Below are positions 5,618-61,700 of a stretch of DNA of 64,000 nt, one piece after another (the stretch's first letter is position 1; every line of letters begins with the position of its first letter). The notes under the pieces were generated by a model. That model saw nothing but the letters and a program-made list of their open reading frames with translations, ran no database searches and had not been told where the DNA came from. The position numbers and the translations under genes are program-made. The stretch spans positions 55,596 through 119,595 of the forward strand of contig CAVJWC010000001.1 of assembly GCA_963653425.1 (NCBI GenBank), read 5' to 3'. The DNA comes from Eubacterium sp. (GTDB lineage Bacteria > Bacillota > Clostridia > Christensenellales > CAG-314).

Positions 5618-7468
5618 ATGAAATATACGGAAATTGAATTAAGAGAAAAAACTTTAACCGAACTCAGAAAAATAGGCGGTTCCGTTGGCGTTGCCAAATA
5701 CAGCAGAAAGCAGGCGGAAGAACTTATCAGCCTTATTCTTGCCATTCAGGAAGGCGAGGTAGAACCTGCCGTTATGAAACGCGGACGTCCGAGGAAAGAC
5801 GCTCATTCTCAGTCGGACTTTTTGCAGGAACAGAAAAAAGAGAGTAGAAAATCGGTTGCGGAAGTTTCTCAGCCCGTACAGAGAGTTACGGTCTATCCGA
5901 CCAAGCCTCAGATTCGCGATTTTACCGAAGAAAATCAGAGAAGAAACGAAGGCTGTATAGATTTCAGAAACAACGGCGAGAACGGCGGAAATTACCAGAA
6001 CCGTCAGAAAGTCGGCTCTTACGACGATTACGTAAATTCGCGGATAGTTCAGCCCAAACAGCCTAAAAGAGATCCTCTCCGTCAGAAATCTTCGGGCGAC
6101 TGGAAAATCAAAACTCCCGATGGAACTGAAAAAACCGTTGCCGAGCAGACGGACAGAAGTCAGAACGTTCAGGACGGCATAAAGAACTTCGACGTCGCGG
6201 ACGGTTATCAGAATCCCGCCAAGTCCGATAATTACGAAGGTCAATCCGTATCTTACGGCGAAGAGAGTTGGAGAGAGAGCAGAAAGCCGATAAAATACGA
6301 AGAATCTTTTGACGTTCAGCAGGATTTCGACGTTTCGGGAATAGTAGAAGTAATGCCCGACGGATACGGCCTTTTAAGAACGGTAAACTATTATCCGTCC
6401 GACGCAGACGTTTATATTCCCGCAATGCAGATCAAGCGTTTCCAGCTCAGAAACGGCGATAAACTTAACGTCCGCGCAAGACCTTTCCCCAACAACAGAT
6501 ACCCTTCGGCTATATTCATTTACTCAATCAACGACGTTCCCTGCGATCAGCTTACCGCACGCGTGAATTTCGAAGATCTGACGCCCATATATCCGATGGA
6601 AAGAATAAGACTTGAAGACGGTCAGCATCAGTTCGACGTGGCTTTAAGAGCGATAGACCTCGTTTCTCCCATAGGAAGAGGACAGAGAGGACTTATCGTT
6701 TCTCCGCCAAAGGCAGGTAAGACGGTTCTTTTGAAGAGCATAGCTCAGGCAATACTCAGAAACTACGACGATATTCACGTTATCATACTTCTCGTGGACG
6801 AGCGCCCGGAAGAAGTCACGGATATAAGAGAAAGCGTAGACGGAGCGGAGATAGTTTATTCCACCTTCGATATGACTCCCGAACACCACACGAAAGTTGC
6901 CGAACTCGTAATGCAGAGAGCAAAGAGAATGGTGGAAATCGGAAAGCACGTGGTTATATTGCTCGACAGTATCACTCGTCTTTCGAGGGCTTACAATCAG
7001 GTTACCGAACAGACGGGAAAGACTCTTACGGGCGGTCTTGACAGCGCGGCGCTTTACGAACCCAAGAGATTCTTCGGCGCGGCAAGAAACATCAAGGGCG
7101 GAGGAAGCCTTACCGTTATAGCGACGGCTCTCGTGGATACGGGAAGCAAGATGGACGATATAATCTACGAAGAATTCAAAGGCACGGGCAATATGGAAAT
7201 TCACCTGAGCAGAAAGATGTCCGAAAGAAGAATTTTCCCGGCAATCGACCTGAATAAGAGCGGAACGCGCAGAGAGGAATTGCTTCTTAACGCCAACGAA
7301 CAGGAAGGAATGTGGATTTTAAGACGTATTCTTTCCAAAGCCGACAACGCCGACGCAACCGAAAAGATTCTGGATATGCTTCTTGCAACCAAAACCAACG
7401 AGGAATTCCTCGAATACGTCCGTTCAAAAATCGGTACGAAGCAAAACAAACCCAATCCTACGCTATAA
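5618..7468 (+). CDS. rho: transcription termination factor Rho with ~190-aa N-terminal insertion domain
   Basis: Rho_N helix bundle (aa 1-45), CSD-like [14 protein letters not shown] at aa 241, Walker A SPPKAGKT, Rho C-terminal ATPase motifs. 616 aa against about 420 for minimal Rho. Confidence 0.95.
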
Positions 7469-7573
7469 ACTTACAGCGTAAAATATGACGCTATAAACTT
7501 ATAGTGCAGAATATGACGATAGATAATGAAACTATAATTCCCTACAGGGCTTTCAGCCCAAACACCGACCCAA

Positions 7574-7890: not shown

Positions 7891-9450
7891 ATGGCGAAAG
7901 ATAAAAACGAGTTGTCAACGGAAAAAGGCGCGCTTTTCAGATTGCCCGATTCTTACTTTGACGGCGTAAAAACGGAGAAAACGCTGGATTTTCTTAACGA
8001 CGGAGCAACTTATACGTTTACTCCGCAAAACGAAGCTTACGGAGAAGAAAAGCTTTCGGGCGATTCTCTGCGTGGCGACGTTATGGATTCAGAGGGCGAA
8101 AGCATAGGCGTTTTCGATTTCGACGGAGGGTATATTCCCGCAACGAAGAAGAAACAGCTTGCGCAAAAGCAGAAAGATCAGACAAAAGTGCAGGAAGAAG
8201 AGGACGAAGAACCCGTTAAACGCAGGGCTTCGGACGGCATTCAGATAGTAGACCTTCCCGTTGAGATAAAGCCCGCGTCGCAACAGATTCTGCCGACGGC
8301 TATCGGGGATAATTTCGGCGGTTCTCAGTTCAGAACGGCTGTTATCAACGGAGAAAGAGTAGTTTACGCGCCCATGGATTCCATGATGAACGGAGGAATG
8401 AATCCTTTCGGAATGATGACTCCCAACATCACCATAAACCCGCAGAACATTACGATAAATCCGCAGTCCGTCACCATGAACCCGAGCGTCGTTCAGATGA
8501 ACCCGGAAACCGTTACGATGAATCCCAACGTAGTTACGATGAATCCCGAAACGGTTACCATGAACCCCAACGTGGTACAGATGAATCCCGAGACCGTTCA
8601 GATGAACCCCGGGGTAGTAAATATGAACCCCGAAGTCGTTCAGATGCGTCCCGAAGTCGTACAGCTCAAAACCGACGCCGTTCAGATGAAGACCGATTCG
8701 GTCAATATGGCTCCTACGGAAGTTAATATAGAAAAACCCGAAACGAATACCGATCGTCAGGCTTTACCGAACGCGAAGGAGGGAGCGGGCGCCGAAACTC
8801 AGACCGTTCCGCTCGTAAAAGACGAAAAACCTTCTTCCGAACAGAACAACGCCGATTTGTCCGCAAGAGCGGGATATAAGGTTAAAGTCGAAGACCAGCA
8901 GATAAGCCTTGACGACGAGTTTATAAGCACTATTTCAACCCGTATCGTGGGCGAACTCAAAAAAGACGGCGTCGTTTTCTTCAGTAATTCTTCCGCAAAT
9001 GCGGCTGTGGATTCGGGCTTTAAGTACGGAGCCGAAGAAGAACCCGAAGCTGAAAAGAACGAAGAAACTTCAGACCAGGAGGACGCGGACGATAAATCCC
9101 TTTCGCAGAAAGCGGGAGCTTCCGACAGAGGACGTTCGCGTACGTCCGAAGGCGTGAAAGTGGAAGTTCTGGACGAGGAAGATTCTCATAAACCCGTAGA
9201 ACCCGAAATAATCGAACTCGGAGGTGCGCCCGTCACGCCCGCGTCTCAGGCTAAATCCGAAATGAAGAAGAAGCCTTCTTTCCTTAGAGATTTGTTCAAC
9301 AGAATTCTCTCGATTTTTAGAGGCGGAAGGAAGAATACCGAAAACGGCGTTAAGTCTCTTCCCGCAGGAAATTCGGGTAAAAAAGCTTTAAGCGAAAAAA
9401 TCGAAGGCGCGGATAAACTCGGTTCGGTTTACGACTATTTCGGAGAATAA
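7891..9450 (+). CDS. hypothetical acidic protein with 15 tandem V-x-M-N-P-x-x heptads
   Basis: 519 aa, RBS GAGGAT, no signal peptide or TM. Heptad array at 8428-8742. The C-terminus contains an amphipathic stretch PSFLRDLFNRILSIF. No family recognised. Confidence 0.75.
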   Translation: MAKDKNELSTEKGALFRLPDSYFDGVKTEKTLDFLNDGATYTFTPQNEAYGEEKLSGDSLRGDVMDSEGESIGVFDFDGGYIPATKKKQLAQKQKDQTKVQEEEDEEPVKRRASDGIQIVDLPVEIKPASQQILPTAIGDNFGGSQFRTAVINGERVVYAPMDSMMNGGMNPFGMMTPNITINPQNITINPQSVTMNPSVVQMNPETVTMNPNVVTMNPETVTMNPNVVQMNPETVQMNPGVVNMNPEVVQMRPEVVQLKTDAVQMKTDSVNMAPTEVNIEKPETNTDRQALPNAKEGAGAETQTVPLVKDEKPSSEQNNADLSARAGYKVKVEDQQISLDDEFISTISTRIVGELKKDGVVFFSNSSANAAVDSGFKYGAEEEPEAEKNEETSDQEDADDKSLSQKAGASDRGRSRTSEGVKVEVLDEEDSHKPVEPEIIELGGAPVTPASQAKSEMKKKPSFLRDLFNRILSIFRGGRKNTENGVKSLPAGNSGKKALSEKIEGADKLGSVYDYFGE

Positions 9451-9538
9451 AACGAGTAACGATAAAAGCGCGTGAAACCGCCGTTAGTCGCAGACAGGAA
9501 GGCAACTAAGGCTTTTACGCCACATAGGAAGTGAAATA

Positions 9539-10738
9539 ATGAAGATTGAAACACGGATCGAATTCGGCGGATTTACCGATAACCTCAGATCGCTCGGAAA
9601 ATACAACGACAAACAGGTTATTATGGACGGGATTATCCCGGGAGAAACCGCAGACGTCGTTCTTACCGATAAAATAGACGAGGTTTATTACGGAAAACCC
9701 GTAAAAATCGTTAAACCGTCGAAATTCAGAGTAAAACCGCCCTGCGAGTATTATGATACCTGCGGAAACTGTTCTCTGCAACATATCGACTATCAGTTTC
9801 AGGTCGAATCCAAGCTTAAAATTCTTGGTAAAAAGCTTGCTCCTTTCGATAAAGAGGTAACCGTTCTGCCGGCAGAGAAGGTCTTTTTCCCTTATAAATA
9901 CAGAAATCACGTTTCGCTTTATTTTTCGCACAAAAAAGACAGGATCACTCTCGGCTACAAAGATTTGCGGACGGGTTTAGTGACGGATATCGATTCCTGC
10001 GCCGTTTGCGATAAATGGATTGCAGTCCTTATCAAAACGGTAAAGAGTTTCGCGGGTAAGTTCAAGATCAGAAGTTTCAATCCCGTAACGGGCGAAGGCA
10101 AGCTTATTTCGCTTAACGCTATTTTTACGGACAACAGACTTATTCTCGCTGTCCAGACGGCGAGCGAATCTCTTATGGGTTCGGCTTGGCTGTATAAGGA
10201 ACTTTGCGCCGTTTTCGGGAAGGTCAGCTTCTATACCTGTTTCAGAACGGACGCAGGTCTTCAATATAACTTAATCGGAGGCGAAAGAAGAGCTTCCGTC
10301 AGGTTCTGCGGTAAAGATTTACCCGTTAAACCCAATATGCGTCTTCCCGTAAACGATAAGCTTTTCGGTAAGCTTTTCCGCGCGGTGGAAGAAAAAATCG
10401 GCGAAGAATACACGCTCGTATCGGGCGATTGTTCGGCTACGTTAACCGAACTTCTCTCGGACAATCCCAACGTTTTCATTAAAAAATCGAACGATATGCC
10501 CGCAAAGAAACCTTTACAGAGTTTTATCGAACTCAAAGACGGTTTCGAGGACAATCAGCTCAGATTTATAAAGACTTTCAGAACGAAAAGACTTTTGATT
10601 CTGCTTAACGATTGCGATCGGATCGAAGAGACGGTAAAGACCGTCGTTAACGAAAAATATCGGAGCGTAACCGTTACGCCTTTCGATATGCAACCGCAAA
10701 CGAAGAAGCTTTCCGCGCTTCTTTTTTGCGAGACCTAA
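9539..10738 (+). CDS. RumA/TrmA-like protein (TRAM + Fe-S Cys cluster) with degenerate methyltransferase motifs
   Basis: The N-terminus has a TRAM-like fold pattern and CEYYDTCGNCSLQH plus a later C...C (DIDSCAVCDKW), as in 23S rRNA U-methyltransferases. The C-terminus retains PFDMQPQT, which resembles the family's terminal DMFPxT motif as I recall it. I cannot find the GxGxG or catalytic SCNP motifs. Confidence 0.6.
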   Translation: MKIETRIEFGGFTDNLRSLGKYNDKQVIMDGIIPGETADVVLTDKIDEVYYGKPVKIVKPSKFRVKPPCEYYDTCGNCSLQHIDYQFQVESKLKILGKKLAPFDKEVTVLPAEKVFFPYKYRNHVSLYFSHKKDRITLGYKDLRTGLVTDIDSCAVCDKWIAVLIKTVKSFAGKFKIRSFNPVTGEGKLISLNAIFTDNRLILAVQTASESLMGSAWLYKELCAVFGKVSFYTCFRTDAGLQYNLIGGERRASVRFCGKDLPVKPNMRLPVNDKLFGKLFRAVEEKIGEEYTLVSGDCSATLTELLSDNPNVFIKKSNDMPAKKPLQSFIELKDGFEDNQLRFIKTFRTKRLLILLNDCDRIEETVKTVVNEKYRSVTVTPFDMQPQTKKLSALLFCET

Positions 10739-10780
10739 AAAAACGAACCGCCCCAAGCGGACGGATAACGGAGACTTACA

Positions 10781-11704
10781 ATGAATATTTTGGTTTCGGG
10801 CTTAGTGAACATAGAAACTTCCGTACCTGTGCGCGGATTTCCCGTTCGCTATTACCCGATAGATTATCTGTTCGGAAGCGTTACGAGTACGGTTTCGGGC
10901 GTAGGCTTCAATATAGCCAAGGCTTTGTCGCGACTGGGCGACGAAGTGGATATGGTATCCCTTATAGGCAACGATTTTTACGGCGATTTTGCGCTGAAAA
11001 AGCTTAAAGAGTGCGGTATAAACACTCGTCTCGTGAGAAAACAACTCGAACTTACCTGCCATTCGGTAGTGCTTTACGATAAGGACGGAAGCAACCAGAT
11101 TTACTGCGACCTTAAAGACGTGCAGAACCAGCCTTACGTGCAGAATACCGATAAGGCTCTTATGAGAAGCGAACTTGCCGTTCTTTGCAACATCAACTTT
11201 TCTCGGTCGCTTTTGTCGAGAGCAAAACAGCTGAATATTCCGATAGCTACCGACTGTCACGTTTTAAGCGACGTACACGACAGCTTCAACCTCGAATTTA
11301 TGAGATACGCGGATATTCTGTTCCTTTCAAATTCCGCTATTTCAGGTAGCGAATACAGCTTCATAAGGCAACTTGCGGCTACCTATTCGAGTAAGATTAT
11401 CGTAATAGGTATGGGCAAAGAGGGCGCGATGATGTATACGAGAGACAACGATACGATAAGACATTATCCCGTTCCCACCGACGAAAGCTTTGCCAATACG
11501 AGCGGAGCGGGCGACGCGCTTTTCGCATGCTTCGTGCATTATTACGCCAAGGACAAAAATCCCGAACGCGCTTTGGATTACGCTCAGGTTTTCGCCACGA
11601 GTAAACTTCATTCGCCTACTCCCGACGGAGGATTTTTAAGCGAAGAAGAGCTTGAAAACTATATCGGAAAGATCCGTCCCGCCGAGAAACAAGCCGAGAA
11701 ATAA
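10781..11704 (+). CDS. PfkB-family carbohydrate kinase
   Basis: 307 aa, C-terminal TSGAGDALFACFVHYY (PfkB signature 2). RBS ACGGAG. Confidence 0.85.
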   Translation: MNILVSGLVNIETSVPVRGFPVRYYPIDYLFGSVTSTVSGVGFNIAKALSRLGDEVDMVSLIGNDFYGDFALKKLKECGINTRLVRKQLELTCHSVVLYDKDGSNQIYCDLKDVQNQPYVQNTDKALMRSELAVLCNINFSRSLLSRAKQLNIPIATDCHVLSDVHDSFNLEFMRYADILFLSNSAISGSEYSFIRQLAATYSSKIIVIGMGKEGAMMYTRDNDTIRHYPVPTDESFANTSGAGDALFACFVHYYAKDKNPERALDYAQVFATSKLHSPTPDGGFLSEEELENYIGKIRPAEKQAEK

Positions 11705-12438: not shown

Positions 12439-12501
12439 TTTCTACCTCCTTTCATTATCCCCGATTATTTGCAGTCAATCAATATAAAAACCGAAAGTTC
12501 G

Positions 12502-13003
12502 GCGTTTCGTTCGTTCTTAGCGATATTTTACGGAAATCGATCGGCATATTCGCCCTTAAACTTTTTCCCGATTCCCGTATACGATCCGTATAAAAACTGA
12601 ACGCCTACCGATTTTATACATTATACACTAATATTCCCGAACTGGCAAGCGTTTTTTTATGGCTAAAAACGTTTGTTTAATAAATTGGTCTTTGCGTTCC
12701 GTTTATTATCCCTGATTATCTTACGGAAACAAATCGGTTTAGCCTTCGTTTTACTCCCTCTTACGTATATAAAGTACGCCCTCAGCTCAAAGCTTCGGTT
12801 AAACTACCCACCAATGTGGCGATTTCTTCCGCGTAAAAACGCTACGCGCCACAGTTGCATATTTTTAGCGAATTAAAAGCGGTTACTGTGCTAATCGGCA
12901 ATAACGAATGTTGCGCTTAGCGTTCCGTTCGCAACACTCGTATTTTTTACGGAAACAAATCGGTTTAGCCGTGGTTACTATGCCAATCGGCGATAACGAA
13001 TGT
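12502..13003. repeat. composite intergenic repeat (three A units, two B units)
   Basis: A1 12694-12744 and A2 12920-12970 share an identical 10 bp (GCGTTCCGTT) and an identical 24 bp (TTACGGAAACAAATCGGTTTAGCC) around unrelated 17-bp cores. A3 12502-12544 is a degenerate copy. B1 12879-12911 and B2 12971-13003 are 29/33 identical. Confidence 0.85.
12620..12648 (-). promoter_or_regulatory. sigmaA-type promoter upstream of lexA
   Basis: Minus strand: TTGCCA (12648-12643), 17 nt spacer, TATAAT (12625-12620). About 180 nt upstream of the lexA ATG. Confidence 0.45.
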
Positions 13004-13017
13004 AATACCAACCGTTT

Positions 13018-15385: not shown

Positions 15386-15510
15386 TTGTTTCGCCTCTTT
15401 TCGATTTTAACATTTTTTCGCGCCGTTGTAAAGTGCTTAGCTTAAAAATGTAATTTACATAGAAATTCCGTTAGACGACGGCTACCCGAACCGTAACGAC
15501 GTGAGCGACG

Positions 15511-15583
15511 CCGATAAAAACGGAGGAAAAACGCCGCCGATAAAAACGGAGGAAAAACGCCTGTAAAAACGGAAAAAACGACG
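15511..15583. repeat. tandem 26-bp repeat, about 3 copies
   Basis: CCGATAAAAACGGAGGAAAAACGCCG (15511-15536), a second copy 25/26 identical (15537-15562), then a degenerate third unit. Confidence 0.85.
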
Positions 15584-15588
15584 CCGAT

Positions 15589-15613
15589 TAAAAAAGGCTG
15601 CCCGAAGGCAGCC
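15589..15613 (-). terminator. intrinsic terminator of spo0A
   Basis: GGCTGCC-ttcg-GGCAGCC followed by TTTTTT on the minus strand. Confidence 0.8.
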
Positions 15614-31069: not shown

Positions 31070-31304
31070 AAGTAAAGAAAGTTAAACCGACCTTTCCGTT
31101 CATTATCCGAGCGGTAAGCGTAGGTAAAGAACATTGCGCCTTACGTTCCGTTCGTTACAGGGAACGCCGTAAAGCGGGAAGGAAAGAAGGTTTCGCTTTC
31201 TCAAAGAAAATCAGCGCGGAATTTAATAAAGAGATTAAAGCCCTTTACGGACAAAAAGGTTGATTTGCACAAACAAAAACGACGGGTATTCAACCATAAA
31301 TCTA

Positions 31305-43222: not shown

Positions 43223-43251
43223 GAATAATTATCGCAAACGGTTGCACACTA
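43223..43251 (+). promoter_or_regulatory. candidate forespore (sigmaG/sigmaF-type) promoter of spoIVB
   Basis: GAATA (43223-43227), 17 nt spacer, CACACTA (43245-43251), against my recollection of the sigmaG consensus GHATR-N17/18-CATxxTA. 39 nt upstream of the ATG at 43290. Confidence 0.35.
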
Positions 43252-43289
43252 AGAGAGAAATATCAGCCTGCGGGCTATTGAGAGGTACT

Positions 43290-44408
43290 ATGAAAAAACC
43301 TATATTGGCGGTGATTCTTCTTGTGTTGCTCGGCTCGGCTTTGAGCGCAGTATTTTGCCCGTTCAAAGCCGTTCTGACGTCTGCCGAGCAGTACGATTGT
43401 TCTTTATCGGACAACGAAAACCTTTACGCGTCGGGCGAAACCATTATAGATAAGATCGGTCAGGCTATCTTTAAGGGTAAAACCGTCGTCGGCGAAGTTC
43501 GTCTGGGAGGAATTCCTATCGGGATAAGTCTCGAATCGAGCGGAGTAAAAGTTATCGGAATAAGCGAAATAATGACGAAAAACGGCGTTCAGTGTCCAGC
43601 GATAGAGTCGGATATAAGAATAGGCGACGTGATAATCGGAGCTGACGGCGTTGAAATAAACAGTTCTCTTCGTTTAAGTCAGCTGGTCTTAGAAAGCAAC
43701 GGAGAGGAGATCGAACTTGAAATTATACGGGGAGAAAAACTAAAAAAGAAAATAAAACCGCTTTACGACGAACTTAGCGGAAAATACAAACTCGGACTCT
43801 GGACGAAAGAGGGCAGTAGCGGAATAGGCACGCTGACGTTTGTAAAAGAAGACGGACGGTTCGCGTCTTTGGGGCATCCGATAGTCAATCCCGAAACGGG
43901 AGAGATATATAAAATCAGCGGAGGAAGCGTTTATAAGTGCGTGATAACGGGAGCCGTAAAAGGCGGAAGAGGCAGAGCCGGAGAACTCAGAGGCGATTTT
44001 AAGGACGTGAAACTCGGAACGGTTTCTTCCAACGGGAAAATCGGCGTTTACGGAACGTTTACAAACCGTGACTATCTTAGTTATCCCAAGATAAAGATTC
44101 TTTCGTCCAAGTCGGTAAAACCAGGGAAAGCCTACGTTTATTCTACCGTGGAAGGCGAAAAGCCCGAACTATACGAAGCCGAAATAATCAAAGCTTCCGT
44201 TCAGAGCGGAGAAAGCGACAAAGGAATAGTCGTAAGAATTACCGATAAAAGACTTATCGAAAAGACGGGCGGTATCGTTCAGGGAATGAGCGGAAGTCCC
44301 ATTATTCAGGAAGGTTGTCTCGTCGGCGCGGTAACTCACGTTTTCGTAAGCGACGGAGTGAAGGGATACGGAGTTTACGCCGAATTTATGTACGACAAAC
44401 TGAAATAA
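43290..44408 (+). CDS. spoIVB: SpoIVB peptidase (S55)
   Basis: Signal-anchor, PDZ (IRIGDVIIGADGVEI), S55 motifs GTLTFV...SLGHPI and GMSGSPII. The ATG at 43290 (RBS GAGAGG) is preferred over the track start at 43242. Confidence 0.93.
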   Translation: MKKPILAVILLVLLGSALSAVFCPFKAVLTSAEQYDCSLSDNENLYASGETIIDKIGQAIFKGKTVVGEVRLGGIPIGISLESSGVKVIGISEIMTKNGVQCPAIESDIRIGDVIIGADGVEINSSLRLSQLVLESNGEEIELEIIRGEKLKKKIKPLYDELSGKYKLGLWTKEGSSGIGTLTFVKEDGRFASLGHPIVNPETGEIYKISGGSVYKCVITGAVKGGRGRAGELRGDFKDVKLGTVSSNGKIGVYGTFTNRDYLSYPKIKILSSKSVKPGKAYVYSTVEGEKPELYEAEIIKASVQSGESDKGIVVRITDKRLIEKTGGIVQGMSGSPIIQEGCLVGAVTHVFVSDGVKGYGVYAEFMYDKLK

Positions 44409-44442
44409 ACCGCATTATGTACGATAAATCGGAATAAACCGC
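44386..44442 (+). repeat. tandem duplication of the spoIVB 3' terminus (2 x 28 bp)
   Basis: 44386-44413 (includes stop TAA 44406-44408) against 44415-44442: 24/28 identical, and all 4 differences are transitions. Confidence 0.9.
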
Positions 44443-44630
44443 GTTGTTTCCTATAATAAGCCGTTCGGGTTTAAGTAAAAAACGGACGGCAAAAACTCTG
44501 TAAAATAACGCAAAAACGAGAAGCCCGCAAAAGTTATAATAACCGAGAAAGCCGAGAAACCGTAAAAGTTATAAACGACGGAGAAGTAACGCAAGAGAAA
44601 AAGTCATAAATAACGGAGAAAGACAATAAA

Positions 44631-44657
44631 ATACCGTATGAATATACGGTATTTTTT
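44631..44657 (+). terminator. intrinsic terminator
   Basis: ATACCGTAT-gaat-ATACGGTAT followed by TTTTTT. The next ORF's ATG (44638) lies within the stem and loop. Confidence 0.7.
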
Positions 44658-45240
44658 GTCAAAGCAGGTTGATTACGTAAAAGAAACGCTGAAAAGTAAG
44701 GCTTACTGCCTTATAATAGCTTTAGTCGCGGTTTTATGCGGAATTATCACGGGCATAATCAACAGTCACGCGATAACGGAGTTTTGTCGGGTAGAATGTT
44801 GCGGATTTTTTATCTGCAAGATCTCGGGAACGCCCGATACCTTTTCGATTTTCTTCAAAAGTTTGTTTTCGTCGGTGTTTATTACGCTTTTACTAAGCTG
44901 TTTCTGCGCCGTAAACAAATGGTCGGCTGTTGCTCAGTACGTTTTTCTGTTTATATTCTCGGCGGGTTTTACGGCAGGCGTATGCTCTGTTATAAAGACC
45001 GTTACGGCAATAGGAATTCTTATCGTTTTTACGGTTTTTCTCGTCTATTTTTCAGGTGTAATCACGATATTTGCGGGAATAATTCTCTATACGAGGGGAG
45101 ACGACTACGGGAACGGAAAAATCACCGTGCAAAAAACGGTCCTTCTTATCGTGACGTCAACCGCGCTTCTTGCCGTAATATGTTTGCTGTCGGCGACCGT
45201 ATACGTCACGTTTTTCAGACCGTTGTTTTGTTTTCCGTAA
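44638..45240 (+). CDS. hypothetical membrane protein (start uncertain)
   Basis: 200 aa, 4-5 hydrophobic segments. The only ATG sits inside the terminator hairpin and has no close RBS. An in-frame TTG at 44656 is an alternative. Confidence 0.5.
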   Translation: MNIRYFLSKQVDYVKETLKSKAYCLIIALVAVLCGIITGIINSHAITEFCRVECCGFFICKISGTPDTFSIFFKSLFSSVFITLLLSCFCAVNKWSAVAQYVFLFIFSAGFTAGVCSVIKTVTAIGILIVFTVFLVYFSGVITIFAGIILYTRGDDYGNGKITVQKTVLLIVTSTALLAVICLLSATVYVTFFRPLFCFP

Positions 45241-45274
45241 AGTAAAAAGTCTTTGCGCTTTTCGCCTTTTCAAG

Positions 45275-45337
45275 TCGCATAGCATTCGCTAATCCGACAG
45301 CTAAATCCGCATAGCATTAGTTAATTCGGCTACTGAA
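45275..45337. repeat. tandem 31-bp repeat (2 copies)
   Basis: TCGCATAGCATTCGCTAATCCGACAGCTAAA / TCCGCATAGCATTAGTTAATTCGGCTACTGAA, in a convergent intergenic region. Confidence 0.8.
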
Positions 45338-45373
45338 TCTGTCAGACGTAAAGAAGGTAAGGCTGACTTCAAA

Positions 45374-51687: not shown

Positions 51688-51716
51688 TTGCTAAGAAATC
51701 CCGTAAGTTATATAAT
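51688..51716 (+). promoter_or_regulatory. sigmaA-type promoter for the phosphatase gene
   Basis: TTGCTA (51688-51693), 17 nt spacer, TATAAT (51711-51716). It overlaps the upstream candidate starts, which argues for the ATG at 51739. Confidence 0.55.
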
Positions 51717-51738
51717 GAAAGAAAAAACGGAGCAGAGT

Positions 51739-52902
51739 ATGGAAAGTTCATTGACTTTAAGTATAAAAAAGCGTTCGCGCATTCTGATTATAACGGCGGT
51801 AATTCTCGTTATTCTTGCGTCGTCTTGTTTACTCTCGGCGTGTTACAAGAAGAAAGTCGTTGCCGTTAAAAACGTAGCCATAGGCGAAGACGTTAAATTC
51901 AACGCCGCCATCGTGGGTATTGCGATCGAAGACTTCAACGACAGAGGCTTTGCTTTGGGAGACAGTTGCGACGTCAGATTCAGCAACGGATACGAAATGA
52001 CGGACGTGCCTTATTATAACGGCTATTACGTTCAGAACGGTCAGCCCGTTATCGTGGCTTACCCGTCCGACAAGTTTATCAAAATCACCCTCAATAACGT
52101 CGGAATATGGGACGTGGCAGAGCTTAACGACAGCTGTACGGTAGATATTACGCTTAATACCGCAAAGAAATATTTAGCCACTCAGGAAGCTTTGGGACAG
52201 AGTTATTCGCTTGACAGAAATTCGTACGACAGCGACGAGTCCTTTGCTAATTTCAGGGCGATTTCGGGCGGGAACCTCAAAGAAACTTTGATTTTCAGGG
52301 GAGCGAGTCCCGTTGACAACAGCAGAAATCGCGCAAGATACGTAGACGCGTTATTGGAAATCCATGAAATAAAGTGCGTAATCGACCTTGCCGACTCGTT
52401 TGAAAATATAGCCGAGTATACGGCGCTCGACGACTTCTTTTCGGAATACACGCTTTCGCTTCTTGAAAAGGGCGACGTCGCGCTTTTGTCCATGAGTTCG
52501 AGTTACGGTTCGGACGCTTACAAACGAAGCCTCGTTAAAGGTTTCGAGTTTATGCTCAGCCACGACGGACCTTATTATATCCATTGTATGGAAGGTAAGG
52601 ACCGTACGGGTTTCGTCTGCGCGCTTATAGAAGCTCTTGCGGGCGCAAGTTACGAGGAAATGCGTAACGATTATATGATGACTTACGAAAATTACTATAA
52701 GATTTTCCCGGATTCGAACCCCGAAAAATACGACGCCGTAGTTAAGCTTTACTTCGACTCGTTTATGAGATGTATTTCGGGTAAAGACGACCTGTCCGCG
52801 GTAACCCAAGACGATTACGTTTCGGGCGCAAAGAGTTATCTTATGAGCGGAGGAATGAGCGAAGAGAACGTAAACCTGTTTATCGGGCTGATTTCGAAGT
52901 GA
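51739..52902 (+). CDS. lipoprotein tyrosine-phosphatase-like protein (CX5R, Y_phosphatase3-like) with extra N-terminal beta-rich domain
   Basis: Lipobox LLSAC. C-terminal half carries HCMEGKDRTG (the CX5R P-loop). The ATG at 51739 has ACGGAG 7 nt upstream. Confidence 0.75.
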   Translation: MESSLTLSIKKRSRILIITAVILVILASSCLLSACYKKKVVAVKNVAIGEDVKFNAAIVGIAIEDFNDRGFALGDSCDVRFSNGYEMTDVPYYNGYYVQNGQPVIVAYPSDKFIKITLNNVGIWDVAELNDSCTVDITLNTAKKYLATQEALGQSYSLDRNSYDSDESFANFRAISGGNLKETLIFRGASPVDNSRNRARYVDALLEIHEIKCVIDLADSFENIAEYTALDDFFSEYTLSLLEKGDVALLSMSSSYGSDAYKRSLVKGFEFMLSHDGPYYIHCMEGKDRTGFVCALIEALAGASYEEMRNDYMMTYENYYKIFPDSNPEKYDAVVKLYFDSFMRCISGKDDLSAVTQDDYVSGAKSYLMSGGMSEENVNLFIGLISK

Positions 52903-53020
52903 GCATAGCCGATACGAAAAAACAAATACAAAAAACAAACGAACGAAGAAAAACACAAGAAGAACGAAGAAAAATACGAAAAAGCAAAGAAAATACAAAC
53001 TAAAAGATACAAAAGAGCAA

Positions 53021-58334: not shown

Positions 58335-58535
58335 GCGAGCGGAGCAAACTGCAGACGTGTTTAATGAGCATAGTAAGCAACGCAGGCGATTTCTTATGAG
58401 CCGATAATTAGTCGGCGATTTTCAGCGAGCAAAGTAAGTTGCAGACGATTTTAATGAATGGATTAAGCAACGCAGACGATTTTTAATGAAAGAATAAGTA
58501 ACAGACGATTTTTAAGCAGCAGAGCAAGTACCTCA
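58335..58535. repeat. six-unit degenerate tandem repeat, about 30-bp period
   Basis: The core GCAGACG(A)TTTTAATGA recurs at 58351, 58382, 58412, 58441, 58472 and 58501, each preceded by AAGTAAGCAAC-like sequence. Confidence 0.85.
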
Positions 58536-58551
58536 ATAAAAATCACTATAT

Positions 58552-58577
58552 AAAAAAGGCTCCGCAAATGCGGAGCC
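58552..58577 (-). terminator. intrinsic terminator of the subtilase-LRR gene (possibly bidirectional)
   Basis: GGCTCCGC-attt-GCGGAGCC followed by TTTTTT on the minus strand. Confidence 0.8.
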
Positions 58578-58594
58578 TTCGCCTTTCGGCTTGT

Positions 58595-58706
58595 TTAATC
58601 GTTTGTTTTGCGATTGGCTATTTAATCGCTTTTACGATTGGTTGTTGTTGCTTAATCGCTTGTTTTACGATTTGGTTTTAATTAAATCGCTTATTTTACG
58701 ATTATG
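58595..58706. repeat. four-unit tandem repeat; first unit is the 3' end plus stop of the subtilase gene
   Basis: Plus-strand units TTAATCG(C)TT(G)TTTTACGATTGG start at 58595, 58622, 58652 and 58682 (period 27-30). The unit at 58682-58706 contains codons ...IIVK and the stop. Confidence 0.85.
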
Positions 58707-61700
58707 TTTTTGAAGTAAGTTCTCCAGATGTAGTTGGTGTAAGAAACGTCGCTGCTTACGTAAATCTTAACGCCTTCGTTTCCGTTTGCTTCTTCGATGT
58801 TATTTACGAACTGGTTATAGAGGTATCTTGCGCCGTCTCTGTAATAGCTCTGAAGAACGGGTGCCTTTTCGGATTTGAAGGTGATTTCGGTAAGAGCCGT
58901 GCAACCGAAGAATGCTCCGTCGCCGATATAGCCGAGGCTTTCGGGAAGAACTACGTTCTTAACGGTCGTATTTCCTGCGAAAGCTTCTGCGTCTATCTTA
59001 ACGATTCCTTCGGGAAGAGTTACGTTTGCTTCCGTTCCGAAGTATCTGTAGAGAACGGTCTTGTCTGCGTTATAGAGTCCGTCTTCGAATTCGGTGAGAA
59101 CTTCACAGCCGTTAAGTTCAACGGAAGCAATGTTGGTGGAACCGAAGAATACTCTGGAGAAGTTGAATTCTGCTACGGCTCCGAGCGTTACCTTTTCGAG
59201 GGTTTCTATTGCGCCGAAAGCTTTGTTTCCGAGGTATTCCGCATTGTTTACGGTAACTTCGGTGAGCTTGGTTGCATAGAAAGCGTTGTCGTCGATTTCA
59301 ACGAGATCGTCGCTCAGAACTATTTCTTTAAGTGCCGAGTAAGCGAATGCTTTTTCACCGATGCTCTGAACCGCGGGTAGAACTACCTTTTCGAGGTTGG
59401 GCGCGCCCATAAACGTTCCTGCGGTGATTGCGGTAATGCTTTCGGGCAGTACGAGTTCGGCTACGGTGCTTGCCGTCGGGTAAAGAAGGATAGCCGTTTC
59501 TTCCTTGTTGAAGAGAACGCCTTCTACCGAAGCAAAGTATGCGTTGTTCTCGTGAACGACGATTTCTTCGAGAGCGTCACAGCCCGTGAAGGTTCCGAGC
59601 GCGTCGAAGTAACCGAGTTTTTCGCCGATGTAGAAAGATTTAAGAGAGGTGCAGTATGCGAACGCGTTGTAGCTTTCTCCTTCGAAGCTCATTACCGATT
59701 CGATGGTTTCGAGAGCGGGGAAGTAAACCGATTCGATCTTGTCTGCATAGCAGAAGGAAGAACCGGTGAGAATCTGTACGTTTTCGAGTTCGAGTTCGGT
59801 AAGACCGGAGTTCTTAAACGCGTAGTCGCAGATAACCATTACGTTATCGATACCCGTAATTTCTCTGAGAGCGGGCGTATTGCTGAAAGCTCCCATACCT
59901 ATCGTCTGAGAATCGGTGTTGAGGAAGGTTACCTTTTCGAGTTTTTCGCAGTTTACGAACAGATAAGGCACGTCTGCGGTAATGTACGCAGGAACTTCGA
60001 TTTCAACGAAACCTGTGCCGGAATAGAAGCTTTCGTAAGTTTCCACTTCGACGTTTTCGCCGATAACGATTTCGGTAAGGTTATGGCAGTCCGTCCAGAC
60101 GCCAGAAGCTATTCTCTTGGTGTTTTCGCTCGTTACGAAGCTCGTTATAGCCGTTCCCGCAAGAGACTGCGTTTCGAATACTTCGATGTTTTCGATGTTG
60201 ATTTCTTTAAGGTTGGTGTTTCTGTAGAAGCAATATGCGGGCAAAGTCTTCAGCTGACTTCCGAGTTTAACTCCCTGAAGGAGAGTCTTGTCGTAGTCGG
60301 CAGAAACGAACGTGGATCTGAGATTCCAGTAATAACCTCCGCCGTATTCGCTTTCGGGACGGATACCGTAATCAGGTTTAACGTATTCGGGAACGTATTC
60401 GGGAATGGAGAATGCTCTTTCGTTAAGTTCGGTTATGGTTTCGGGCAGTTCGAGTACGCCGTCATAATCCCATGCAAAGGGCTTATACAGCGTGGTCTTT
60501 TCTGCGTTGTAAACGAGGCCGTTTTCGTCTTTAACGAGTTTGTCGTTACCTTCGAGAACGTTAAATCCGCCTGCAAGCAGATTGCTTCCGCCGAATGCTA
60601 AATTACCGATATAACCGATAGTTCCGCCGAAAGATACGTTGGAAAGCTTGGGACAGTCCGCAAACGCGAAACCGTCAATCATTCCTACGTCTTTTTCGAA
60701 GATAACTTCTTTAAGGCTCATAAGAGAAGAGGTTGCCTGACTGTACTGTTTGGGATAATACGGACCGTTATCCGAAATACCGCCTATACGGGTTACGTTG
60801 CCGTGGAAGACTATTCTTTCGAGCTTATCGCAGAAAGTCAGAGAGTAAGCTACTCCCATAGACGCACTGATGTGGCTTTCGAGAATATTAACGTTACCCA
60901 TAAATTCGACTTCTTTAAGAGAGTCGTTGAACATAACGGAACTCTGCATAAATTCGACGTCGCCGAGGAAGGTTACCTTTTCGAGGTTGGGACATACGGC
61001 TACGGAGAAGCCCAGACTGAGAGCGGTGCTTGCCTTGGGGAAGGTAAGAGTCTTAACGCCGAGACCGTTGAACGAGAAGGCTGCGTTGTTGATGCTGGTG
61101 TTTTCGAGATCGAGAGAGGTAAGCTTGGGAAGCGTACATACGGAAATGCCTTCCAGTCTTTCCAGAGTTGTGGGAAGAATGAGTTCAGTGAGGTTATAAA
61201 GATTCATAATGGAATAACCGTTTATGATCTTAACGCCTTCGGGAAGCACGATCTTGGTGATTCTGCTGTCGCCGTTGAAGACGAACGCGCCTATAGAGGT
61301 AACGCCGTCGGGTACTATAACTTCTCCGCCTTCACCGTTATAAGCCTTAAGAACGCCGTCTTCGATAACGAATTCTTCTGCTTGTTCTTCTTCGTTTTCG
61401 GAATTAACGACTGCGCCGTTCATTGCGACGGAGCTGTCAAAGCTGTTGTAAGTACGTACTTCCGTGTAGGAAGGATCGTTTACGTCGTAGTAAATTACGA
61501 AGTTGTCGGTGCGGTATTTAACTGCAAGAGTGCGGTTGTCGTTGCCAGTAATAACAGCGTTTGCGTTGTTTTCACCGCTATCGGGAAGTTCGATTTCGTA
61601 AACCGAAACGTTTCTTGCGTAGTCCACGAGCTGAACGGCAAAGGTGTTATTTACAACGTTAGCCATATAATCGGTAACGTCTATGGAGTAGGAGTAACTT

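Follow-up and report, generated by a model that had tools for sequence, protein, structure and literature searches.

The 3' end of spoIVB, stop codon included, is duplicated in tandem in the DNA analysed here, a stretch of 64,000 nucleotides (64 kb, hereafter the window), and this repeat is real and far beyond chance. With a probability of about 0.72, we read it as a short, lineage-specific tandem duplication in the spoIVB 3' untranslated region (UTR), of the slipped-strand or short template-switch kind, which was tolerated and then diverged by ordinary mutation. The features of the locus are as follows, in coordinates of the window.

43290..44408, + strand: spoIVB-type peptidase gene, 372 aa, with stop TAA at 44406-44408
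44362..44452, + strand: predicted imperfect hairpin of 91 nt, from the fold, with the stop codon in the apical loop
44386..44414, + strand: copy 1 of the 29-bp unit, holding the last codons (F)MYDKLK and TAA
44415..44443, + strand: copy 2 of the 29-bp unit, noncoding, with four clustered transitions at 44425, 44429, 44430 and 44432
44409..44637, + strand: A/G-rich spacer of 229 nt between spoIVB and the next gene, expanded relative to the 42 to 53 nt of the nearest other species
44628..44660, + strand: terminator-like hairpin with a T-run, from the fold, overlapping the ATG of the downstream gene (44638)
44638..45240, + strand: membrane-type protein of 200 aa, of no known family, which follows spoIVB in relatives too

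The open reading frame at this locus is listed as 43242..44408; the real coding sequence (CDS) is 43290..44408, which equals protein P0001 (100% over 372 aa). Its product matches Pfam Peptidase_S55 (1.2e-67) plus a PDZ domain (PDZ_2) and reaches 302 bits against TIGR02860, just below the cutoff of 305. The downstream 200-aa protein had no match in Pfam or NCBIfam. Rfam gave no match at the gathering threshold anywhere in the window, and only chance-level matches (E >= 1) for 44300-44720. No strong stem-loop with a U-tract comes between spoIVB and the element at 44628-44660, which is itself of that kind; a terminator scan lists the stem of this element on the opposite strand, and a stem equivalent to it is visible by eye in one relative (L007).

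A preliminary description of the locus had reported that the spoIVB 3' end and stop are repeated at 44386-44413 and 44415-44442 with 24/28 identity and a period of 29, that the TAA of copy 1 lies at 44406-44408 after ...MYDKLK, and that the copies differ by C>T, C>T, T>C and A>G, the same multiset as in a duplicate at rho. All of this proved correct, as did its account of a third pair, B1/B2 (12879/12971), with 4 transitions in 33. Copy 1 (TTATGTACGACAAACTGAAATAAACCGC) consists of the last 20 bases (last seven codons) of spoIVB, whose reading frame ends F M Y D K L K, then TAA and, counting the single A at 44414 that separates it from copy 2 (TTATGTACGATAAATCGGAATAAACCGC), 6 bases of 3' UTR. 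This A sets the period at 29 and leaves copy 2 out of frame with spoIVB (29 mod 3 = 2). The four differences lie at unit offsets 10, 14, 15 and 17 (0-based), that is, within 8 of the 28 positions (p = 0.038 under uniform placement).

Several searches of the window recovered the repeat. Tandem Repeats Finder reported a period of 29, 2.0 copies and a score of 86, and a separate repeat search returned the identical pair. A degenerate pattern of the unit, allowing up to 3 mismatches, matched just these two sites in the 64 kb, with 0.00 matches expected from 100 shuffles. In a scan of offsets 8 to 400 that was blind to substitution type, nine local pairs scored at least 16 in the window, and six shuffled windows yielded none. 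Support was lacking for a third, decayed copy at 44444-44470 (p = 0.21). We rejected a dispersed or mobile element, or an att-site scar, as the source of the repeat: the unit is unique, the copies are adjacent, and there is no integrase or transposase among the neighbours. A role for the second TAA as a backup stop or frameshift product is improbable, as it is out of frame. A 40-aa open reading frame at 44315-44437 reads copy 2 as MYDKSE* and is merely a shifted frame of the spoIVB repeat.

The SpoIVB protein of the window is present on six contigs, of which we fetched three (L003, L004 and L005). These are 99.4 to 100% identical to the window; one is identical and two differ by 0.5% over 15 to 20 kb. 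Bases 44380-44445 are unchanged in 3/3 of them; the repeat is therefore real, fixed in the species and older than the strain divergence of 0.5%. An assembly artefact is ruled out by the same contigs, in that an NCBI metagenome-assembled genome shares the repeat with two Logan assemblies, which are independent and differ by 0.5% at other positions. No single-copy strain came to light. When JGI metagenomes were searched with a degenerate gene-end pattern for single- or multi-copy variants, only the sister species L008 was returned, with a sequence equal to that of L001.

Outside the species, the next-closest SpoIVB proteins in a collection of 5.8 billion proteins are only 78% and 73% identical. 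The corresponding loci, L001, L006 and L008 (78% aa identity) and L007 (73%), each carry one copy of the gene end, which reads ...GAATTTATGTACGATAAAGCAAAATAA, ...TATAACAGAATAAAATAA or similar, and no trace of a duplication was found in any of the four. These relatives reach the equivalent 200-aa membrane-protein gene after 42 to 53 nt, compared to 229 nt in the window. The single-copy state and the short spacer together indicate that the duplication and most of the spacer are specific to this lineage.

Under the reading that we prefer, a 29-bp segment across the gene end would have been copied once, head to tail, most likely through slipped-strand misalignment or a short template switch during replication. 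A quasi-palindrome, TTTAT-GTAC-(G)ATAAA, which is encoded by F-M-Y-D-K, possibly helped the duplication. The boundary sequences, compared by eye, are CCGAAT/TTATG upstream, CCGCA/TTATG at the junction and CCGCG/TTGTT downstream, which is suggestive but weak, and no clear microhomology was seen by eye at the duplication junction. Because copy 1 retains the codons and the stop, the protein would be unchanged and the event tolerated, with copy 2 lying past the stop as noncoding sequence. The location fits survivorship, since a duplication of 28 or 29 bp within a gene shifts the frame, whereas one across the stop spares the protein. The copies would then have diverged by about 14% through ordinary point mutation, and by chance the four changes would all have been transitions. 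Slippage is the probable mechanism, and the duplication was presumably neutral.

The preliminary description had instead attributed the absence of transversions in the spoIVB, rho and B1/B2 pairs to a shared deamination or mismatch-repair type of process, or to a shared origin. Comparison of the window with two conspecific contigs gave a spectrum of 65 transitions to 30 transversions among single-nucleotide polymorphisms (SNPs), or 68% transitions (57:24 in coding and 8:6 in noncoding sequence). At this background, four transitions out of four have a probability of 0.22. For the three pairs together, 12 transitions out of 12 have a probability of 0.011 (Fisher 0.015), a value to be read knowing that the pairs were picked by eye and after the fact. 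A census of local pairs across the 64 kb, blind to substitution type and confined to high-identity noncoding pairs, gave 17 transitions to 3 transversions (85% versus 68%; p = 0.08, Fisher 0.11). With gentler scoring, which also admits older non-random pairs, the same 64 kb gave 41:25 (62%; Fisher versus the SNPs 0.50). The older, clearly homologous pairs hold transversions: 19:11 at 58335-58439 and 5:2 at 45276-45307. The transition bias fades as more repeat pairs are counted, an outcome that the preliminary description had itself set down as refuting its proposal, and the all-transition pattern at spoIVB is within the range of the genome's own spectrum.

The direction of the changes can be partly polarised with relatives. 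The nearest relatives end GAT AAA xxx AAA TAA, with Asp encoded by GAT and AAA as the last codon. Judging from three relatives only, offset 17 most likely records an A-to-G change in copy 2 and offset 10 plausibly a synonymous T-to-C change in copy 1; at the Asp codon position, protein selection permits only a transition. A cytosine deaminase would not leave changes that run both ways and affect both copies, and we set aside a RIP-like (repeat-induced point mutation) or deaminase origin on the same three relatives, as GAA in copy 2 implies A-to-G and GAC in copy 1 implies T-to-C.

A dedicated process that generates transitions in repeats, whether RIP-like, a deaminase or a mismatch-repair defect, is accordingly a reading to which we give very little credence. 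The 12/12 transitions in three pairs and the 17:3 ratio of the strict census are what speak for it, but the three pairs were selected after they had been seen, the unbiased strict set reaches only p = 0.08 to 0.11, and the relaxed set equals background. Both the C/T and the A/G class occur, in mixed inferred directions, which is a misfit with cytosine deamination. In the absence of mismatch repair, more than 90% transitions are expected; the strain SNPs have 68%. The units are just 28 to 33 bp, and all substrates of repeat-induced point mutation that we know of are far longer than that.

Shared ancestry of the three pairs fared no better. Any likeness among the rho, spoIVB and B1 units stays within that of shuffled sequences, so we rejected a common origin. 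The rho and spoIVB pairs do share the ordered changes C>T, C>T, T>C and A>G; with all four transition types equally likely, two sets of four would have the same multiset with a chance of about 0.04, which we regard as a mild coincidence, spotted after the fact.

Only the predicted hairpin spanning the stop codon makes the repeat more than a trivial scar, and it is fragile. The spoIVB CDS end forms the 5' arm (44362-44394) and copy 2 most of the 3' arm (44418-44452), so that copy 2 pairs with the CDS end and has no partner downstream. The hairpin has a minimum free energy of -22.6 kcal/mol (z = -2.24), a value matched by 1 of 200 shuffles. As an intrinsic terminator, 44362-44452 does not qualify: UAUAAUAAG follows it, with no U-tract, and the terminator scan does not list the hairpin. 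All four differences between the copies lie in the 3' arm, where three replace an A-C or C-A mismatch by a Watson-Crick pair and one replaces G-U by G-C. When copy 2 is set equal to copy 1, the fold weakens to -13.7 kcal/mol, and each single reversion in copy 2 weakens the hairpin by 1.8 to 5.5 kcal/mol. Starting from a perfect duplicate, four random transitions in copy 2 reach the observed energy in 1% of draws and four substitutions of any kind in 0.35%; these nulls presume that every change fell in copy 2, and the outcome depends on the assumed ancestor. From an ancestor like copy 2, the differences weaken the hairpin (from -29.5 to -22.6 kcal/mol), and the null is 0.69.

These energies bear on an alternative in which the duplication was shaped into a functional RNA stem-loop of about 30 bp, imperfect and with the stop in its loop. 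It would act as an intercistronic stabiliser of the mRNA or as a processing barrier, placed between spoIVB and the membrane-protein gene, and its differences would be transitions because they passed through G-U intermediates. We consider this unlikely. The fold and the improved pairing at all four differences favour it, and so does the observed allocation of bases between the copies, which is the best of 16 possible swaps; yet that test is won by just 0.1 kcal/mol, and the improvement in pairing is reversed under the copy-2-like ancestor. Part of the complementarity (TTTATGTACGATAAA, with the core TTTAT-GTAC-(G)ATAAA) simply follows from the FMYDK codons, and L001 has it as well. No stop-spanning hairpin was found at the spoIVB ends of three relatives (z = +1.1, +0.7 and -0.6), so no conserved need for it is apparent, and all carriers considered here are identical, which leaves no covariation signal. 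The same four-difference null was not significant for the rho and B1/B2 pairs. The hairpin is most simply a by-product of the duplication.

The clustering of the differences suggests a further alternative, namely that they were written in one step by template switching associated with the quasi-palindrome: an imperfect inverted repeat would have been partly corrected toward complementarity during replication, rather than acquiring four independent mutations. Passages of PMC7202029 and PMC6357072 present such mutagenesis as an established bacterial mechanism. The rho differences also cluster within 8 nt (p = 0.038 there too), the spoIVB differences raise complementarity to the opposing arm, and one C>T at rho turns CTATAA-AC-TTACAG into the perfect palindrome CTATAA-AC-TTATAG. 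On the other hand, the copy 2 arm, GTACGATAAATCGG, is no exact templated copy, the reverse complement of the opposing arm being GTACATAAATTCGG, and one bulge is left on each side of the stem. Polarised with outgroups, at least one of the four differences seems to have arisen in copy 1, and a template switch need not give transitions exclusively. Taking both sides together, we hold a one-step origin of the differences to be very unlikely.

Other repeats in the window put the spoIVB unit in context. Noncoding tandem repeats with units of 26 to 32 bp occur at 7460, 15506, 44386, 45276, 58441 and 58630, mostly just 3' of genes. The rho pair lies at 7460-7487 and 7488-7515; Rho matches TIGR00767 at 540 bits. 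Its repeat folds well (z = -3.5), as does a repeat at the 3' end of a gene for a 1748-aa protein, which forms hairpins (z = -4.8); in both, the stop codon is in the first unit. These two repeats add to the case for a functional stem-loop at spoIVB, while the other tandem repeats of the window, which fold no better than shuffles, detract from it. The rho duplication is absent in two relatives, where a terminator follows directly after the stop. A contig found via a neighbour of rho (L009) is 100% identical to the window and so carries no further information. Two other spacers also hold local repeats and are long compared to their counterparts in relatives: the convergent spacer at 45241-45373 (133 nt versus 25 nt in L006) and the lexA to GTPase spacer at 12439-13017 (580 nt versus 27 nt in L010). 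The overall noncoding share is ordinary, at 10% of 19.8 kb.

The rho, spoIVB and 1748-aa gene repeats could also be taken together, as a sign that this species repeatedly builds 3' UTR structure by duplicating gene ends. In each case two to four hairpin-forming units would stand in tandem ahead of the real terminator, the first of them containing the stop, and later copies would be tuned by transitions, via G-U intermediates, to pair with the first. We think this generalisation quite unlikely to hold. If it were true, selection on RNA pairing, and not a mutational process, would have left the all-transition pattern as its footprint, the loci would carry stem-loops across the stop codon with control over mRNA 3' stability or over read-through into the following gene, and they would show how coding sequence gives rise to new 3' UTR structure.

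As it stands, the spoIVB repeat matters little: it adds one example to the short tandem duplications that persist in bacterial 3' UTRs, here in an uncultured Clostridia lineage. It does carry a caution. Where transitions make up two thirds of substitutions, a few short repeats that differ by transitions only are to be expected fairly often, and the apparent bias fades once pairs are gathered without selection.

Among known systems, fungal RIP resembles the spoIVB repeat in that duplicated DNA ends up as copies that differ by transitions alone. RIP, however, takes place before meiosis, on repeats of hundreds of bp, and its changes are C-to-T or G-to-A only, whereas the spoIVB units are 28 bp long, reside in a bacterium and include at least one inferred A-to-G change, with a bias not clearly above background in the 64 kb surveyed. 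The template and variable repeats of diversity-generating retroelements (DGRs) are similar in that a gene's 3' end is repeated just downstream together with its last codons, but those repeats are about 100 to 150 bp, compared to 28 bp for the spoIVB unit. We rejected a DGR because the mismatches do not fall at template adenines (copy 1 has C, C, T and A where copy 2 has T, T, C and G). No reverse transcriptase was found within 10 kb on either side among the Pfam families on record, several genes there having no recorded family.

Repetitive stabilisers of the REP/BIME type, as in the malE-malF spacer of E. coli, likewise place a stable stem-loop after a CDS and before the next cistron, and other gene ends in the window carry tandem hairpin-forming units before the true terminator. 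REP/BIME elements are dispersed and follow one genome-wide consensus, in contrast to the arrays of the window, each of which has its own sequence; the spoIVB structure is not conserved in relatives, and any functional role of it would be putative. We excluded membership in such a family on the grounds that the unit occurs at one locus in 64 kb (up to 3 mismatches), belongs to no dispersed family and is unlike the other arrays. Quasi-palindrome template switching, as studied with thyA and lacZ reporters in E. coli, shares with spoIVB the clustered changes that raise the complementarity of an inverted repeat, but the spoIVB arms are imperfectly complementary and the changes are apparently spread over both copies.

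The closest likeness in our reading is to slipped-strand duplications, on which PMC6054270, a source on bacterial indel patterns, offers no statement as regards tandem duplications. The spoIVB unit differs from these in showing no obvious flanking microhomology to the eye and in overlapping a CDS end, and together with that end it is quasi-palindromic, so that a long hairpin was created as well. The likenesses are adjacent head-to-tail copies of a few tens of bp, restriction to one lineage, later decay by point mutation, and a harmless site with the stop kept in copy 1. Two marks of such events were found directly at spoIVB, namely adjacent copies in the same orientation beyond chance and a single-copy state in relatives.

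The unit of the rho repeat, the 28-bp pair at 7460-7487 and 7488-7515, is quasi-palindromic (ACGCTATAA-AC-TTACAGCGT) and holds the TAA stop in its left arm (window 7460-7545). As a consequence, pairing between the two copies gives a hairpin, which folds with z = -3.5 on the plus strand and z = -4.8 on the minus strand, where z compares the fold energy with that of shuffled sequences. In the minus-strand fold, the differences between the copies turn into G-U pairs. Within the repeat, the perfect palindrome CTATAA-AC-TTATAG arises through one C>T. The repeat is absent in two relatives (loci L010 and L011), in which the terminator lies directly 3' of the stop, and the C-terminal tail of Rho is longer in the window, with 11 letters compared to GKNVK. 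Gene order between rho and lexA differs as well: lexA comes immediately after rho in L010, whereas three genes intervene in the window (7891-11704), encoding two proteins of 519 aa and 399 aa, and a PfkB-family kinase.

A third instance of a stop codon located within the first of several tandem units occurs in the minus-strand 1748-aa gene (58585-58715, fold z = -4.8). Its stop, at 58691-58693, falls within AAUCGUAAAAUAAGCGAUU, which is followed by three further degenerate hairpin units (AAUCG-N-CGAUU) and then by the real terminator near 58553-58578.

Downstream of spoIVB, a terminator-like hairpin with a T-run at 44625-44660 overlaps the start codon of the next gene (ATG at 44638). By our reading by eye, the next relative after the sister species (L007, approximately 2900-2935) has an equivalent stem made of different bases, GCUGUAU/AUACGGC compared to UACCGUAU/AUACGGUA in the window; this is a hint of structural conservation, and such a structure could link termination to translation start of the downstream gene. 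Further along, the convergent spacer between this downstream membrane-protein gene and an isochorismatase-family gene measures 133 nt in the window, compared to 25 nt for the sister species (L006). Within the spacer lies a 32-bp tandem repeat at 45276-45339 (78% identical, 5 transitions and 2 transversions), for which we detected no notable fold.

The spacer from lexA to the HflX-like GTPase gene (12439-13017) is likewise expanded, at 580 nt compared to 27 nt in L010, and holds two copies of a segment of approximately 60 nt (A+B). The first copy is interrupted by approximately 134 nt, which separates A1 (12717-12750) from B1 (12879-12911). The spacer also contains the following features:

12943-13003, second A+B copy (A2B2)
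12524, additional partial A copy
approximately 12905-12950, terminator-like hairpin

A 35-nt stretch with a hairpin (TTGCG...CGCAA) at 12902-12936 is found again 18 kb away, at 31125-31159, with 77% identity; the recurrence may be coincidental, or the stretch may belong to a small dispersed element of terminator-like type.

Three additional noncoding tandem arrays lie 3' of genes:

58335-58514, two 90-nt units, 72% identical (19 transitions, 11 transversions), built from sub-repeats of 29-31 nt
15506-15594, almost perfect 26-nt repeat
52912-52999, A-rich 21-nt array that begins 10 nt past the stop codon of gene 51688-52902

Tandem repetition also occurs in coding sequence, within the 519-aa open reading frame (7891-9450):

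8425-8690, array of tandem units measuring 21 nt (7 aa) and 42 nt

Mismatches in this coding array are transversion-rich, with transition:transversion ratios of 14:18 to 26:34, unlike those in the noncoding repeats.
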